64,000 bases of DNA, from the NCBI RefSeq assembly GCF_057098645.1, contig NZ_CM169472.1. One strand, 5' to 3'. Under the pieces are notes generated by a model. The model searched no databases. It worked only from the letters and a program-made list of their open reading frames with translations, and was not told the DNA's origin. Positions 2,747-39,446 of this stretch are shown one piece after another (positions within the stretch are counted from its first letter, which is position 1; every line of letters starts with the position of its first letter). The position numbers were made by a program, and so were the translations under genes.

Positions 2747-4099
2747 ATGGCACTTGCAATGAAAGTAATCTCTCAAGTTGAAGCGCAGCGCAAGATTCTG
2801 GAAGAAGCAGTTTCCACTGCGCTGGAGTTGGCCTCAGGCAAATCGGACGGTGCGGAAGTTGCCGTCAGCAAGACCACCGGCATTAGCGTAAGCACGCGTT
2901 ATGGTGAAGTGGAGAATGTTGAATTCAATAGCGATGGCGCGCTGGGGATCACTGTTTATCACCAGAACCGCAAAGGTAGCGCATCATCCACCGATTTAAG
3001 CCCGCAGGCCATTGCCCGTACTGTACAGGCGGCGCTGGATATTGCCCGTTATACCTCGCCAGATCCCTGTGCCGGCGTGGCAGACAAAGAGCTGCTGGCC
3101 TTTGACGCACCAGATCTCGACTTGTTCCACCCTGCGGAAGTTTCCCCGGATGAAGCCATTGAACTGGCGGCCCGCGCAGAACAGGCGGCATTGCAGGCGG
3201 ACAAACGCATCACCAATACCGAAGGTGGCAGCTTTAACAGCCACTACGGTGTCAAAGTTTTTGGCAACAGCCACGGCATGTTGCAGGGTTACTGCTCAAC
3301 GCGTCATTCGCTCTCCAGCTGTGTAATTGCCGAAGAAAATGGCGATATGGAGCGTGATTACGCCTACACCATTGGGCGGGCGATGAGCGATCTGCAAACG
3401 CCAGAGTGGGTCGGGGCCGACTGTGCTCGCCGCACTTTATCGCGCCTGTCACCGCGAAAACTCTCCACCATGAAAGCGCCAGTGATTTTTGCTAATGAAG
3501 TGGCAACCGGGCTGTTCGGTCATCTGGTTGGCGCAATTGCAGGCGGTTCGGTTTACCGTAAATCTACCTTCCTGCTGGATTCGCTGGGTAAACAAATTCT
3601 GCCGGACTGGCTGACCATTGAAGAGCATCCGCATCTGCTGAAAGGGCTGGCGTCGACGCCATTCGACAGCGAAGGTGTGCGCACCGAGCGTCGCGATATT
3701 ATTAAAGATGGCATCCTGACTCAGTGGCTGCTGACCAGCTATTCGGCGCGAAAACTGGGGCTGAAAAGCACCGGACATGCGGGCGGTATTCACAACTGGC
3801 GGATTGCCGGACAAGGTCTAAGCTTCGAGCAGATGCTCAAAGAGATGGGCACCGGGCTGGTGGTGACGGAATTGATGGGCCAGGGCGTGAGTGCAATTAC
3901 CGGTGATTATTCCCGTGGTGCGGCGGGCTTCTGGGTAGAAAACGGCGAAATTCAGTATCCGGTTAGCGAAATCACCATCGCAGGTAATTTAAAAGATATG
4001 TGGCGCAATATTGTCACCGTCGGTAACGATATTGAAACACGCAGTAATATACAGTGTGGTTCTGTGCTGTTGCCGGAGATGAAAATCGCCGGACAGTAA
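2747..4099 (+). CDS. pmbA: metalloprotease PmbA/TldE
   Basis: 450-aa ORF, TldD/PmbA-like sequence, conserved synteny. Confidence 0.85.
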
Positions 4100-4279
4100 A
4101 AAAACTGGCGCGACCTGCCGCGCTATAAACTAAAAAATTACACAAAATCATTCGCACTGCATCGAGACGGAAAGTGAATGAGGGCCGGGGAGCGTACTCG
4201 CAGTACGTGACCCGGTCGAATGAGCGTAGTCGTCGATGAGGCAGTGTGAAGGATGAAGTGTAAATAAAAAAGGAAGTGA

Positions 4280-4669
<390 letters not shown>

Positions 4670-4794
4670 TTCCTTATTGGGCGGTGAAACGTTACCGCCC
4701 AACGCTTTCTTACCCCTCGTAAAATCACCGCCAAATCTCTCTTCACTACGGCATATTTCTGCGTGTCGACGCCATTTTTGCGAGGCGTTTTCCA

Positions 4795-5589: not shown

Positions 5590-5745
<156 letters not shown>

Positions 5746-12478: not shown

Positions 12479-12662
12479 CCTGTTGTCCTGTAACGTGTTG
12501 TTTAATTATTTGAGCCTAACTTTACCCGTGCATTCAGCAATGGGTAAAGTCTGGTTTATCGTTGGTTTAGTTGCCAGCAGGTATTATATCGCCATAGATG
12601 CTACGAATATTATTGGATTCTCCTTATTATTTGCGGCGCTTTTTTCACTTACCGGAGGTTAT

Positions 12663-12716
12663 ATGGAACCTGATCCCACGCCTCTCCCTCGACGGAGATT
12701 AAAACTTTTCCGGTAA
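12663..12716 (+). CDS. mgtL: mgtA leader peptide (proline-rich)
   Basis: 17-codon [20 protein letters not shown] in the mgtA 5' leader. Confidence 0.7.
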
Positions 12717-12856
12717 GCCCGTCTTTTCACGGCGTTACCGGATGCGTAAGGCCGTGACGTTTTAACGTCCCTGCTCAGCTTTATTACCTTCAGGTAAGGC
12801 TTCGCCACGCCTGAAGACATTTCTGTACTGTTTCAGACAGTGCGGAGGGACTCCTT

Positions 12857-16217: not shown

Positions 16218-16679
16218 TTAATTGGCCAGCACCACATTATGGGAAAACTCTTTTTCACAGTATTTGCATTTGAGCGCGATATCATTGGCGCGTTTTCGCA
16301 CGGCAAAGCTGGAAGAAACCGGTTCGGCATGGCTGATACAGTTGCTGTTCGGGCAGACCAGCACATTGTCGATGCGCTCCGGCAGACTTGGGCGCGATTT
16401 ACCCACCACTTCATAGTTGTCGATACGGTTAACCGTGGCTTGCGGCGCATACAATGCCAGTTGATCTACTTGATCTTCACTCAAAAAGGTATTTTCGATT
16501 TTGATCAGATCTTTGCGGCCCATCTCGCCAGAAGGCAGGTTCAGACCAATGGTGATGCGCTGATCTGTTTCGGTCAGCTTGAACAGACTCAACAGCTTAA
16601 AACCGATCTGGGCGGGGATATGGTCAATTACCGTGCCGCGTTTAATAGCTTCAACCTGCAATTTATTATCGTGTGTCAT
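16218..16679 (-). CDS. pyrI: aspartate carbamoyltransferase regulatory subunit
   Basis: 153-aa ORF with C-terminal zinc cysteines (CPNSNCISH...CKYCEK). Confidence 0.95.
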
Positions 16680-16691
16680 CTCTATTTCCCC

Positions 16692-17627
16692 TTACAGTAC
16701 CAGATCGCGATTCAGAACCAGTGCCAGTAACGCCTGGCGAGCGAAAATCCCGTTGCCTGCCTGCTGGAAGTACCAGGCGTGTGGCGTTTTATCAACATCC
16801 GTCGCAATCTCATCAACACGCGGCAGCGGATGCAGTACTTTCATATTGGCTTTGGCGTTGTGGAGATCGCTGGCGCGAAGAACAAACTGCGCTTTCACGT
16901 TGGCGTACTCGGACGGGTCCAGACGCTCTTTTTGCACGCGGGTCATGTACAGGATGTCTACTTCCGCCATCACTTCTTCAATAGAGCTGTGCAGACTCCA
17001 TGCGATCCCTTTTTCATCAAGCATATCCAGAATGTATTGCGGCATTGCCAGCGCGTCCGGCGCGATGAAGTAAAAACGGTTGCCGTCGAACTTCGCTAAC
17101 GCCTGAGTCAGGGAGTGAACGGTGCGGCCATATTTCAGGTCACCAACCATTGCGACGTGGAGATTGTCCAGACGCCCCTGGGTTTCCTGAATGGTGAATA
17201 AGTCCAGCAAGGTTTGCGTCGGATGTTGGTTGGAGCCATCACCGGCATTCAGTACCGGTACATTGCCGGAAAACTCGGTGGCCAGGCGCGCCGCACCTTC
17301 CTGCGGATGACGCATCACTATCGCATCGACGTAAGTGCTGATAACCGAAATGGTATCGGCCAGCGTTTCGCCCTTTTTACCCAGTGATGTATTGGCGCTG
17401 TCGGAGAAGCCCACCACGCTGGCACCCAGGCGGTGCATGGAAGTTTCGAAAGAGAGGCGGGTACGGGTAGAGGCTTCGAAGAAACAGCTGGCAATGACTT
17501 TGTGCTTCAACAGCTCTGGTTGCGGGTTTGCTTTCAGTTTCGCCGCTGTCGCCAGCACCAGATTAAGGTCATCGCGACTAAGGTCGTTTATGGAAATGAT
17601 ATGTTTCTGATATAGCGGATTAGCCAT
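16692..17627 (-). CDS. pyrB: aspartate carbamoyltransferase catalytic subunit
   Basis: 311-aa ORF with STRTR and HPLP carbamoyltransferase motifs. Confidence 0.95.
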
Positions 17628-17630
17628 CTT

Positions 17631-17765
17631 TTATCTCCTGACGCCTGGGCAAAAAAAAGCCCCTCGATTGAGGGGCTGGGAATGGGTGATCAACGGGAAG
17701 AAAAACGGCAGGCCAGCGTCTTTTTTCAGACGCGGTAAGACAAAATGTCGAACACACTGAACCAT
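17631..17765 (-). CDS. pyrL: pyrBI operon leader peptide
   Basis: 44-codon ORF MVQCVRHFVLPRLKKDAGLPFFFPLITHSQPLNRGAFFCPGVRR overlapping the attenuator. Confidence 0.8.
   Translation of the reverse strand: MVQCVRHFVLPRLKKDAGLPFFFPLITHSQPLNRGAFFCPGVRR
17651..17676 (-). terminator. pyrBI attenuator (intrinsic terminator)
   Basis: On the minus strand GCCCCTCaatcGAGGGGC hairpin followed by an 8-U run, inside the leader. Confidence 0.8.
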
Positions 17766-17790
17766 ACATCCTCCCGGCAAATTGTCCGGC

Positions 17791-17819
17791 ATTATACTCA
17801 TCGTCAGAAGCGGTGCAAG
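17791..17819 (-). promoter_or_regulatory. pyrBI promoter core (-35 TTGCAC, 17-bp spacer, -10 TATAAT)
   Basis: Minus-strand reading gcTTGCACcgcttctgacgatgagTATAATgccggac, followed by SD GGGAGG and the pyrL ATG. Confidence 0.6.
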
Positions 17820-17918
17820 CATTTGATTAGACTGGCCCCCTGAATCTCCAGACAACCAGTATCACTTAAATAAGTGATAGTCTTAATACTAGTTTTTAGA
17901 CTAGTCATTGGAGAACAG

Positions 17919-18284
17919 ATGATTGATGTCTTAGGGCCGGAGAAACGCAGACGGCGTACCACACAGGAAAAGATCGCAATTGTTCAGCAGAGCTTTGAAC
18001 CGGGGATGACGGTCTCCCTCGTTGCCCGGCAACATGGTGTAGCAGCCAGCCAGTTATTTCTCTGGCGTAAGCAATACCAGGAAGGAAGTCTTACTGCTGT
18101 GGCCGCCGGAGAACAGGTTGTTCCTGCCTCTGAACTTGCTGCCGCCATGAAGCAGATTAAAGAACTCCAGCGCCTGCTCGGCAAGAAAACGATGGAAAAT
18201 GAACTCCTCAAAGAAGCCGTTGAATATGGACGGGCAAAAAAGTGGATAGCGCACGCGCCCTTATTGCCCGGGGATGGGGAGTAA
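17919..18284 (+). CDS. insC: IS2 OrfA (InsC) HTH transposase subunit
   Basis: [40 protein letters not shown]... IS3-family OrfA. Confidence 0.85.
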
Positions 18285-19147
18285 GCTTAGTCAGCCGTTG
18301 TCTCCGGGTGTCGCGTGCGCAGTTGCACGTCATTCTCAGACGAACCGATGACTGGATGGATGGCCGCCGCAGTCGTCACACTGATGATACGGATGTGCTT
18401 CTCCGTATACACCATGTTATCGGAGAGCTGCCCACGTATGGTTATCGTCGGGTATGGGCGCTGCTTCGCAGACAGGCAGAACTTGATGGTATGCCTGCGA
18501 TCAATGCCAAACGTGTTTACCGGATCATGCGCCAGAATGCGCTGTTGCTTGAGCGAAAACCTGCTGTACCGCCATCGAAACGGGCACATACAGGCAGAGT
18601 GGCCGTGAAAGAAAGCAATCAGCGATGGTGCTCTGACGGGTTCGAGTTCTGCTGTGATAACGGAGAGAGACTGCGTGTCACGTTCGCGCTGGACTGCTGT
18701 GATCGTGAGGCACTGCACTGGGCGGTGACTACCGGCGGCTTCAACAGTGAAACAGTACAGGACGTCATGCTGGGAGCGGTGGAACGCCGCTTCGGCAACG
18801 ATCTTCCGTCGTCTCCAGTGGAGTGGCTGACGGATAATGGTTCATGCTACCGGGCTAATGAAACACGCCAGTTCGCCCGGATGTTGGGACTTGAACCGAA
18901 GAACACGGCGGTGCGGAGTCCGGAGAGTAACGGAATAGCAGAGAGCTTCGTGAAAACGATAAAGCGTGACTACATCAGTATCATGCCCAAACCAGACGGG
19001 TTAACGGCAGCAAAGAACCTTGCAGAGGCGTTCGAGCATTATAACGAATGGCATCCGCATAGTGCGCTGGGTTATCGCTCGCCACGGGAATATCTGCGGC
19101 AGCGGGCTTGTAATGGGTTAAGTGATAACAGATGTCTGGAAATATAG
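18242..19147 (+). CDS. insD: IS2 OrfB (InsD) DDE transposase catalytic subunit
   Basis: 301-aa ORF overlapping orfA in another frame, IS3-family arrangement. Confidence 0.85.
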
Positions 19148-19380
19148 GGGCAAATCCATTGATGCAATATTTTGTCAGCGCAAACGGTTTACTTGAATTA
19201 TAAGTCAAAATATATGCATTTTTATTTGATGTGATTCTGCAGGCGACTGTCGTTCGGTATCAATAATTGCAGACATTTCCTGCTTTTTTCTTTTTCACTT
19301 TCACGCAATCAGATATGCATTTTATTCCATTCATCCGACTTATAGGGCGGAGTGTGAAAACGAACGGCTAACACTATTGC

Positions 19381-19776
19381 TTACTGCTCAGGGATGCGCG
19401 CTATCACTTTAATTTCAAAATCAAAGCCTGCCAGCCATGTAACACCCACCGCCGTCCAGTTTGGATAAGGTGGGGTGCTAAATATTTCATTTTTCACCGT
19501 CATGATGTCTTCGAATTGTTTTTCTGGATCGGTATGAAAGCTCGTAATATCAATGATATTGTCAAAAGTGCATCCCGCAGCAGCCAGGGTCGCATGCAAA
19601 TTATCAAATGCCAGTCTGACTTGTTGCTGAAAATCGGGTTCTGGTGTTCCGTCCTCTCGACTTCCTACTTGCCCGGAAACAAACAGCAAATCGCCGGAAC
19701 GAATAGCCGCAGAATAACGATGCTCAGCATACAGTGAATGTCGTCCAGCAGGGAAAACAGCGGTTCTTTCTACCAT
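19381..19776 (-). CDS. yjgH: RidA/YjgF-family protein YjgH
   Basis: 131-aa ORF of the YjgF family in conserved position. Confidence 0.8.
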   Translation of the reverse strand: MVERTAVFPAGRHSLYAEHRYSAAIRSGDLLFVSGQVGSREDGTPEPDFQQQVRLAFDNLHATLAAAGCTFDNIIDITSFHTDPEKQFEDIMTVKNEIFSTPPYPNWTAVGVTWLAGFDFEIKVIARIPEQ

Positions 19777-37922: not shown

Positions 37923-38007
37923 GCCGAAGTGGCGAAATCGGTAGACGCAGTTGATTCAAAATCAACCGTAGAAATACGTGCCGGTTCGAGTCCGGCCTTC
38001 GGCACCA
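37923..38007 (+). tRNA. leuX: tRNA-Leu (anticodon CAA)
   Basis: 85-nt sequence GCCGAAGTGGCGAAATCGGTAGACGCAGTTGATTCAAAATCAACCGTAGAAATACGTGCCGGTTCGAGTCCGGCCTTCGGCACCA with long variable arm. Confidence 0.95.
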
Positions 38008-38171
38008 TTATTACTTCCAAGTCCATCCGAGTAAGTCCGATTATCCATTAAAAATCAATACTTTCAGCGATTTCTACGATCTTGGATCGTCCGAGGTTGT
38101 CCGTTGAAATCCGGATGTCATTGGGGGCATAATTGGGGGCATCTTAACTTCGATTAGAAATGTGCCCCCAA

Positions 38172-39446
38172 ATGAAGCTCAATGCTAGACAAGTCGAGAC
38201 AGCAAAGCCAAAAGACAAAAGCTACAAAATGGCCGATGGCGGCGGTTTGTATCTCGAGGTTTCGGCCAAGGGGTCTAAATACTGGCGCATGAAATACCGA
38301 CGCCCCTCTGACAAAAAAGAGGATCGCCTCGCTTTTGGTGTTTGGCCGACCGTGACGCTTGCTGAAGCTAGAACGAGGAGGGATGAAGCGAAAAAGTTGC
38401 TGGCGCAAGGTATAGATCCAAAAGCAGTACAGAAAGAGGCTCAAGCAGAGAATGCTGGTGCTTATAATTTTGAAACTATTGCTCGTGAATGGCACGCCAG
38501 CAACAAACGTTGGAGTGAGGATCATCGGGCGCGTGTTCTTCGCTATCTAGAGCTGTATATCTTTCCTTATATTGGCTTGTCTGATATCCGACAGCTTAAA
38601 ACTAGCCATCTTTTAGCACCGATAAAAAAAGTTGATGCCAGTGGTAAGCATGATGTGGCGCAGCGTCTTCAGCAACGTGTTACTGCTATTATGCGCTATG
38701 CCGTACAGAACGATTATATAGATTCAAATCCTGCAAGTGATATGGCTGGTGCGTTATCGACAGCTAAAACGCGGCACTATCCAGCTCTACCATCACATCG
38801 TTTTCCTGAGTTCTTAGCACGTCTTGCTGCATATCGTGGTCGTATGATGACGAAAATTGCGGTTGAACTTTCTTTATTAACATTTGTTCGTTCCAGTGAG
38901 CTACGTTTCGCTCGCTGGGATGAATTCGACTTCGATAAATCTCTATGGCGTATACCTGCAAAACGCGAGGAAATTAAAGGCGTACGTTACTCATATAGAG
39001 GAATGAAGATGAAGGAAGAGCATCTCGTTCCACTTAGTAGGCAAGCGATAGGGTTGTTGGAGCAGTTAAAGCAGATTAGTGGTGATAAGACGCTGCTTTT
39101 CCCTGGGGATCATGACGCAACTAAGGTTATGAGTGAGAACACTGTTAATAATGCATTGCGTGCGATGGGCTATGATACGAAAACAGAAGTTTGCGGACAT
39201 GGTTTTAGGACAATGGCACGTGGTGCGTTAGGAGAGTCAGGATTATGGAGTGATGATGCTATTGAACGCCAATTGAGCCATTCGGAACGTAATAATGTGC
39301 GAGCTGCGTATATTCATACGTCTGAGCATTTAGATGAGCGCAGACTAATGGTCCAATGGTGGGCAGATTATCTTTATTCCAACAGAGAGAAGCATATCTC
39401 TGCTTTTGAATTTGCAAATAAACTTAATAAAAATAGCCTTGATTAA
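38172..39446 (+). CDS. intB: P4-type tyrosine integrase
   Basis: N-terminus MKLNARQVETAKPKDKSYKMADGGGLYLEV... typical of P4-family integrases, directly downstream of tRNA-Leu. Confidence 0.9.
   Translation: MKLNARQVETAKPKDKSYKMADGGGLYLEVSAKGSKYWRMKYRRPSDKKEDRLAFGVWPTVTLAEARTRRDEAKKLLAQGIDPKAVQKEAQAENAGAYNFETIAREWHASNKRWSEDHRARVLRYLELYIFPYIGLSDIRQLKTSHLLAPIKKVDASGKHDVAQRLQQRVTAIMRYAVQNDYIDSNPASDMAGALSTAKTRHYPALPSHRFPEFLARLAAYRGRMMTKIAVELSLLTFVRSSELRFARWDEFDFDKSLWRIPAKREEIKGVRYSYRGMKMKEEHLVPLSRQAIGLLEQLKQISGDKTLLFPGDHDATKVMSENTVNNALRAMGYDTKTEVCGHGFRTMARGALGESGLWSDDAIERQLSHSERNNVRAAYIHTSEHLDERRLMVQWWADYLYSNREKHISAFEFANKLNKNSLD

Follow-up and report, generated by a model that had tools for sequence, protein, structure and literature searches.

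An essentially strain-private IS2 insertion at position -45 of the pyrBI promoter in O145:H28-type Escherichia coli

IS1 and IS5 elements inserted upstream of bgl, flhDC and glpFK activate these loci by disrupting upstream silencing, and such insertions are recurrent and selected; IS2, for its part, is polar in one orientation. The IS2 insertion at pyrBI that we describe here resembles the IS1 and IS5 cases in that the element leaves the core promoter intact, lies upstream of it and displaces the DNA further upstream, but it has been seen once only, and we know of no upstream silencing at pyrBI. IS2 is defined by imperfect inverted repeats of 42 bp on the left (IRL, 5'-TAG...TTAA) and 41 bp on the right (IRR, 5'-TGG...TTAA), and its IRL holds a weak, inward-facing extended -10 promoter, PIRL, together with an OrfA operator (PMC3299598). 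The strong minicircle promoter Pjunc combines a -35 from IRR with a -10 from IRL (PMC3299598, PMC12095673), and the fusion promoters formed by IS2, with ampC, acrEF and neoR as examples, are credited to an outward -35 in IRR (PMC9330008). In these fusions (for ampC::IS2, Jaurin & Normark 1983) the element lies in or beside the promoter of a chromosomal operon, as it does at pyrBI, and its right end supplies a -35 that replaces the resident one. At pyrBI, in contrast, it is the left end that is turned toward the operon, and the resident -35 stays in place, with the boundary 31 bp upstream of the -10. A literature search returned no paper linking pyrBI with IS2.

The element occupies positions 17828-19158 (+ strand) of a 64-kb stretch of E. 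coli DNA, hereafter the window, and extends over 1,331 bp from TAGACTGGCCCCCTG to GGGGCAAATCCA, with its transposase genes pointing away from pyrBI. IRL (42 bp, TAGACTGG...TTAA; 17828-17869, + strand) adjoins the pyrBI promoter, while IRR (41 bp, TTAAGTG...CAAATCCA; 19118-19158, + strand) faces the 3' end of yjgH; the two repeats can be aligned over 42 and 41 nt with one gap. The OrfA docking sequence TAAATAA is at 17867 (+ strand) and PIRL lies just inside IRL, following the anatomy in PMC3299598. Two overlapping reading frames follow on the same strand: orfA (insC), encoding 121 amino acids at 17919-18284 (Pfam HTH_Tnp_1, 1.8e-19), and, in the -1 frame, orfB (insD), encoding 301 amino acids at 18242-19147 (Pfam HTH_21 and the DDE domain rve, the latter at 1.1e-18). 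The programmed -1 frameshift window A6G is present as AAAAAAG at 18236-18242 (+ strand), a sequence match to the site given in PMC3299598.

Comparison with IS2A of K-12 MG1655 revealed differences at 4 of 1,331 nucleotides (99.7% identity), including position 32 of IRL, and InsC and InsD proteins identical to InsC1 and InsD1. The two copies share their 1,331-bp length, 42/41-bp inverted repeats, orfA/orfB arrangement with the A6G window and 5-bp target site duplication (TSD), and differ only in these four SNPs and in the insertion site, the TSD of IS2A being ATTAC. Its length, repeats, reading frames with the frameshift window, TSD and near-identity to the reference make the element a complete, canonical IS2, as the initial annotation had it, and the copy is probably competent for transposition. 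An IS2-annotated copy in E. coli FDAARGOS_943 is 100% identical, and 4,058 of the 5,426 complete E. coli genomes searched contain copies covering 80% or more of the element's length. Elsewhere in the 64-kb window, no repeats of at least 150 bp were found.

Copies of the pentamer TTGAT lie directly outside both repeats, at 17823-17827 (left, corresponding to -44 to -40 of pyrBI promoter P2) and at 19159-19163 (right, outside IRR). To reconstruct the empty site, we built a 218-nt query from the left flank, the right flank and a single TTGAT between them. Of 5,426 complete E. coli genomes, 4,822 contain this sequence without interruption, and O145:H28 strains match it at 100% identity; the query matched 5,426 places in 5,424 records, so that a split match is possible in at most two records. 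When the empty alleles of relatives were set against the two flanks of the window, exactly five query bases overlapped, and this overlap, together with the fully identical reconstructed site in O145:H28, identifies TTGAT as a genuine target duplication. The flanks themselves show 100% identity to O145:H28 genomes, the match extending for 17.8 kb on the left side and for 7.8 kb on the right side. A Shigella origin, considered in view of the IS2, was rejected because of this identity and because the window contains no further repeat of 150 bp or more. Since the empty site is found in most complete genomes and exactly in the flank-matching O145:H28 strains, the empty state is ancestral and the IS2 insertion is derived. 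The initial annotation had named an ancestral insertion as an outcome that would refute its reading; the empty site in all close relatives examined shows that this is not the case.

The occupied allele is rare. Its left junction, GCATTTGAT joined to TAGACTGG, is absent from the 5,426 complete E. coli genomes, from GTDB species representatives and from metagenome contigs, the last searched with two patterns; the right junction is likewise absent from the 5,426 complete genomes, and two open reading frames spanning the junctions have no exact-protein record. Among 54 contigs with the exact YjgH or MgtA alleles of this lineage, 53 have the empty arrangement, including all of those with the MgtA allele, and the remaining one breaks off at the insertion site; the PyrB allele is too widespread to be informative. 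The draft genome GCA_012249965.1 (contig AASAWH010000017.1) has the identical YjgH allele and a single SNP in 4.6 kb; its contig carries zero IS bases and ends at the equivalent of window position 19162, 3 bp from the IRR boundary of IS2. This suggests that the isolate has a repeat at the same site, possibly the same insertion. The insertion is essentially private to one strain and is an ordinary IS2 polymorphism: a new site for a very well known element, revealing no new mechanism, which could serve as a strain marker or in sub-typing within an O145:H28-type STEC background.

IS2 prefers sites at or beside intrinsically curved DNA, as found upstream of promoters (PMC3299598). The yjgH-pyrL spacer is richer in A+T (61%, and 63% within 50 bp of the target in both directions) than the whole window (52%). 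One complete genome, that of E. coli 2018-02-2CC (NZ_AP021896.1), appeared at first sight to be a further occupied match and was rejected as a different, IS2-like insertion (3417-4747 of the extracted locus) 238 bp away, at the equivalent of window positions 19396-19400. It shares the intergenic neighbourhood, the orientation and a 5-bp TSD with the window allele, but is a variant 95.7% identical to the present element and lies 238 bp further upstream, where it truncates yjgH and, unlike the window allele, spares the entire upstream region of pyrBI. This independent event indicates that the neighbourhood has been hit at least twice, insertions there still being rare. In 2018-02-2CC, yjgH is annotated as a pseudogene.

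pyrL, pyrB, pyrI and yjgH all lie on the minus strand, so that sequences upstream of the promoter have higher window coordinates. P2 comprises a weak -35 hexamer, TTGCAC (17813-17818; 3/6 consensus match), a 16-bp spacer and a -10 hexamer TATAAT (17791-17796), and leads into the start region AATTTG (17778-17783, with +1 at 17783), a site of UTP-sensitive reiterative transcription (PMC7039003, PMC6524683). Downstream on the same strand are the 44-codon leader peptide gene pyrL (17631-17765; Pfam PyrBI_leader, 3.1e-34), the attenuator hairpin followed by its T-run (17658-17677), pyrB (16692-17627) and pyrI (16218-16679), and no Rfam families were found within 17.6-19.4 kb. On the other side of IS2, yjgH (19381-19776, minus strand; RidA/RutC family) is transcribed in the direction of IS2 and pyrBI. 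IS2 starts at -45 of P2, 9 bp from the -35 hexamer and 31 bp upstream of the -10. The geometry bears out the view of the initial annotation that IS2 separates the promoter core from its native upstream DNA, with two adjustments: the range given for the element, 17823-19163, takes in both TSD copies in addition to IS2 proper, and the distance of 4 bp to the -35 holds for the duplicated target, whereas IS2 itself begins 9 bp away.

What lies downstream of the boundary is nearly that of K-12. From -44 to the start of pyrB there is a single difference, in the -35 hexamer (TTGCAC here, TTGCGC in K-12), and from -30 to pyrB the two are identical. TTGCAC is also found in several other E. coli, and two diverged alleles, L013 and L017, have TTGATC. 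All parts of a P2 promoter with a UTP-sensitive leader are present: TATAAT, AATTTG, pyrL with its 44 codons and, ahead of pyrB, an intrinsic attenuator. The UTP sensors of pyrBI map to +1 to +6 and to the leader (PMC7039003, PMC6524683, PMC5021804); reiterative transcription at AATTTG accounts for an effect of ~7-fold (PMC6524683), and read-through of the attenuator requires coupled translation of pyrL (PMC5021804). Because both sensors, AATTTG and pyrL with its attenuator, lie downstream of the -10 and are identical to K-12, the change in pyrimidine-mediated regulation that the initial annotation had raised is unlikely; judged from these sequences, UTP-dependent regulation of pyrBI should be kept in the occupied allele.

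Upstream of the boundary, the native DNA (19164-19380, minus strand) is now displaced from P2 by 1,336 bp. In the empty allele, the sequence upstream of -45 reads ...AGTAAACCGTTTGCGCTGACAAAATATTGC and is followed directly by ATCAA. Its A/T-rich tract AAAATATT takes up -54 to -47, where the occupied allele has instead the GC-rich tip of IRL, ...CAGGGGGCCAGTCTA, and the A+T content over -65 to -45 falls from 62% to 43% through the insertion. Scored by eye, the tract matches the distal UP consensus at 7 of 11 positions, and it may contribute to transcription from P2, with its weak -35, through the alpha-CTD of RNA polymerase; a literature search returned no description of a pyrBI UP element. A minor pyrBI promoter, P1, contributing little, was reportedly described by Donahue and Turnbough in 1990, and presumably lies within the displaced DNA, 19164-19380. 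Natively, yjgH is followed only by a weak terminator-like hairpin (19283-19269), which also lies in this DNA, as does a PurR-box-like palindrome, AGTAAACCGTTTGCGC (GTAAAC-C-GTTTGC; 19178-19193, minus strand), at -59 to -74 of the empty allele. The palindrome is imperfect, having an additional base at its centre when compared with the canonical PurR palindrome, and matches the PurR consensus at 11 of 16 positions and, by eye, the purHD operator listed in PMC3159470 at 13 of 16. In L013 and L017, genes for OTCase, a DcuC-family transporter and an ArgR-like protein stand upstream of pyrL in place of yjgH, bdcA and bdcR, and the sequence becomes homologous to the usual allele again from ~80 bp upstream of the P2 start.

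We consider it likely that this is a recent, strain-private and simple IS2 insertion that leaves the start site and the UTP response of pyrBI as they were and has at most a modest effect on basal expression. A complete IS2 would recently have transposed into the A/T-rich yjgH-pyrL spacer of an O145:H28-type E. coli, at -45 of the main promoter P2. With everything from -44 downward untouched (-35, -10, GC-rich discriminator, AATTTG, pyrL and attenuator), transcription would be expected to begin at the same site and to keep its response to UTP, and since the promoter in IRL points inward and no outward -35 is known for that end, IS2 would not be expected to drive pyrBI. Exchanging the A/T tract at -47 to -54 for the GC-rich tip of IRL would probably be neutral or lower basal P2 activity modestly, the latter the more so because the P2 -35 is weak, at 3/6. 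Sequences further upstream, including the minor P1 and the conserved PurR-like palindrome, would be uncoupled from P2, and 1.3 kb of IS2, antisense and untranslated, would block read-through from yjgH. The anatomy of the insertion, its derived state and its rarity are shown by the sequences; what is said of expression is prediction, the most likely outcome being no change or a modest decrease in the basal activity of P2. The upstream block is conserved to about -75 in divergent alleles, which suggests some function, and the effect could on that account exceed a modest one. We found no account in the searchable literature of whether the DNA upstream of -45, with its A/T tract, P1 and PurR-like palindrome, contributes to pyrBI expression; if expression of aspartate transcarbamoylase is lowered or rewired in this strain, the insertion would offer a natural allele with which to probe the question.

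The fusions at ampC, acrEF and neoR (PMC9330008) invite a different reading, in which an outward or hybrid IS2 promoter activates or de-regulates pyrBI, in the manner of ampC::IS2 and acrEF::IS2. The provision of outward promoter elements had indeed been suggested for this insertion, and a lenient scan returned one junction candidate, TTGTCT-18-TCTAAT (17855-17826), a 9/12 match spanning IRL and the target; yet the essential -11A is missing from this candidate, its spacer measures 18 bp, and the transcript it would yield would still cross the attenuator. The outward route is disfavoured because it is IRL that adjoins pyrBI while the documented outward -35 of IS2 sits in IRR, here at the far end and pointing away from the operon toward the 3' end of yjgH. 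A standard promoter scan found nothing reading out of the left end of IS2, and a consensus scan of the left 300 bp for outward sigma-70 promoters (at least 9/12, with -11A and -7T), which weak promoters can escape, found none; the criterion that an outward promoter lie within ~150 bp of the IS end comes from PMC12095673, a study that left the left end of IS2 out. Nor do the features of a hybrid promoter appear at this junction: IRR is not beside pyrBI, no IS-borne -35 stands 16-18 bp from the resident -10, and the native -35 is intact and needs no replacement. On the IRR side, direct reading of the sequence shows TGATGC as the hexamer 17 bp downstream of TGGAAA, which is no -10. Taken together, these observations make activation by IS2 very improbable.

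A loss of upstream input is easier to entertain, though still unlikely. Here IS2 would displace an upstream operator, so that PurR repression, input from P1 or both are lost while UTP control is kept. PurR ChIP-chip recorded a signal at the pyrL-pyrB-pyrI promoter together with repression dependent on PurR and adenine, without assigning a motif (PMC3159470). Within the native DNA, the palindrome AGTAAACCGTTTGCGC is the sole 16-mer resembling a PurR box and lies on the displaced side, with none scoring at least 10/16 on the retained side, and its core, AACCGTTTGC, is conserved in the otherwise diverged alleles L013 and L017. The published ChIP interval, however, U00096.2 4470473-4470609, corresponds to window positions 17682-17818 when mapped through the pyrL coordinates and a 1,977-bp offset between genome versions, and so falls entirely on the retained side. 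The candidate box, moreover, with its extra central base and 11/16 score, is of a quality for which ~0.1-0.3 chance matches are expected (binomial estimate), -59 to -74 is an unusual place from which to repress P2, and the effects of PurR on pyr genes are typically ~2-fold. An extension of this reading is quite improbable: pyrBI would keep UTP control and be uncoupled from PurR and P1, and PIRL, standing back-to-back with the strongly pyrimidine-regulated P2 (the two starts diverge from ~120 bp apart), could make the transposase responsive to pyrimidine starvation through local supercoiling. Finally, the absence of the insertion from all other complete genomes would also be expected of an assembly artefact or an IS-mediated rearrangement in place of simple transposition. 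The perfect 5-bp TSD, the element of exactly 1,331 bp and the contiguity of the flanks in relatives, with their exact 5-bp overlap, all speak against this, as does the independent same-lineage draft GCA_012249965.1, whose contig stops 3 bp short of this boundary, as a repeat there would cause, and we regard such an origin as extremely improbable.

The palindrome at 19178-19193 may be connected with the PurR ChIP signal at pyrLBI, for which no motif was given.

Several further features of the window lie outside the insertion neighbourhood. Within 37923-64000, a tRNA-Leu(CAA) gene (leuX, 37923-38007) is followed by a large open reading frame (38160-39446), which we take to be a possible integrase, and then by a genomic island. 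The best partial matches of the island are annotated as type II Zorya (zorA2, zorE), a DNA cytosine methyltransferase, a primase-helicase and an STY4851/ECs_5259 family protein, and matches to C4 antisense RNA and isrK lie at ~45.1-45.4 kb. The segment 39001-64000 reaches a maximum coverage of 78% in any complete E. coli genome (98.9% identity, in Z1323HEC0399/0422 and in O157:H7 strains). Rfam matches in the window include Ysr276 at 31715-31909, four copies of naRNA4 (REP-type), with matches at 1976-2053, 5668-5738 and 30710-30881, and the Mg riboswitch upstream of mgtA at 12648-12763.
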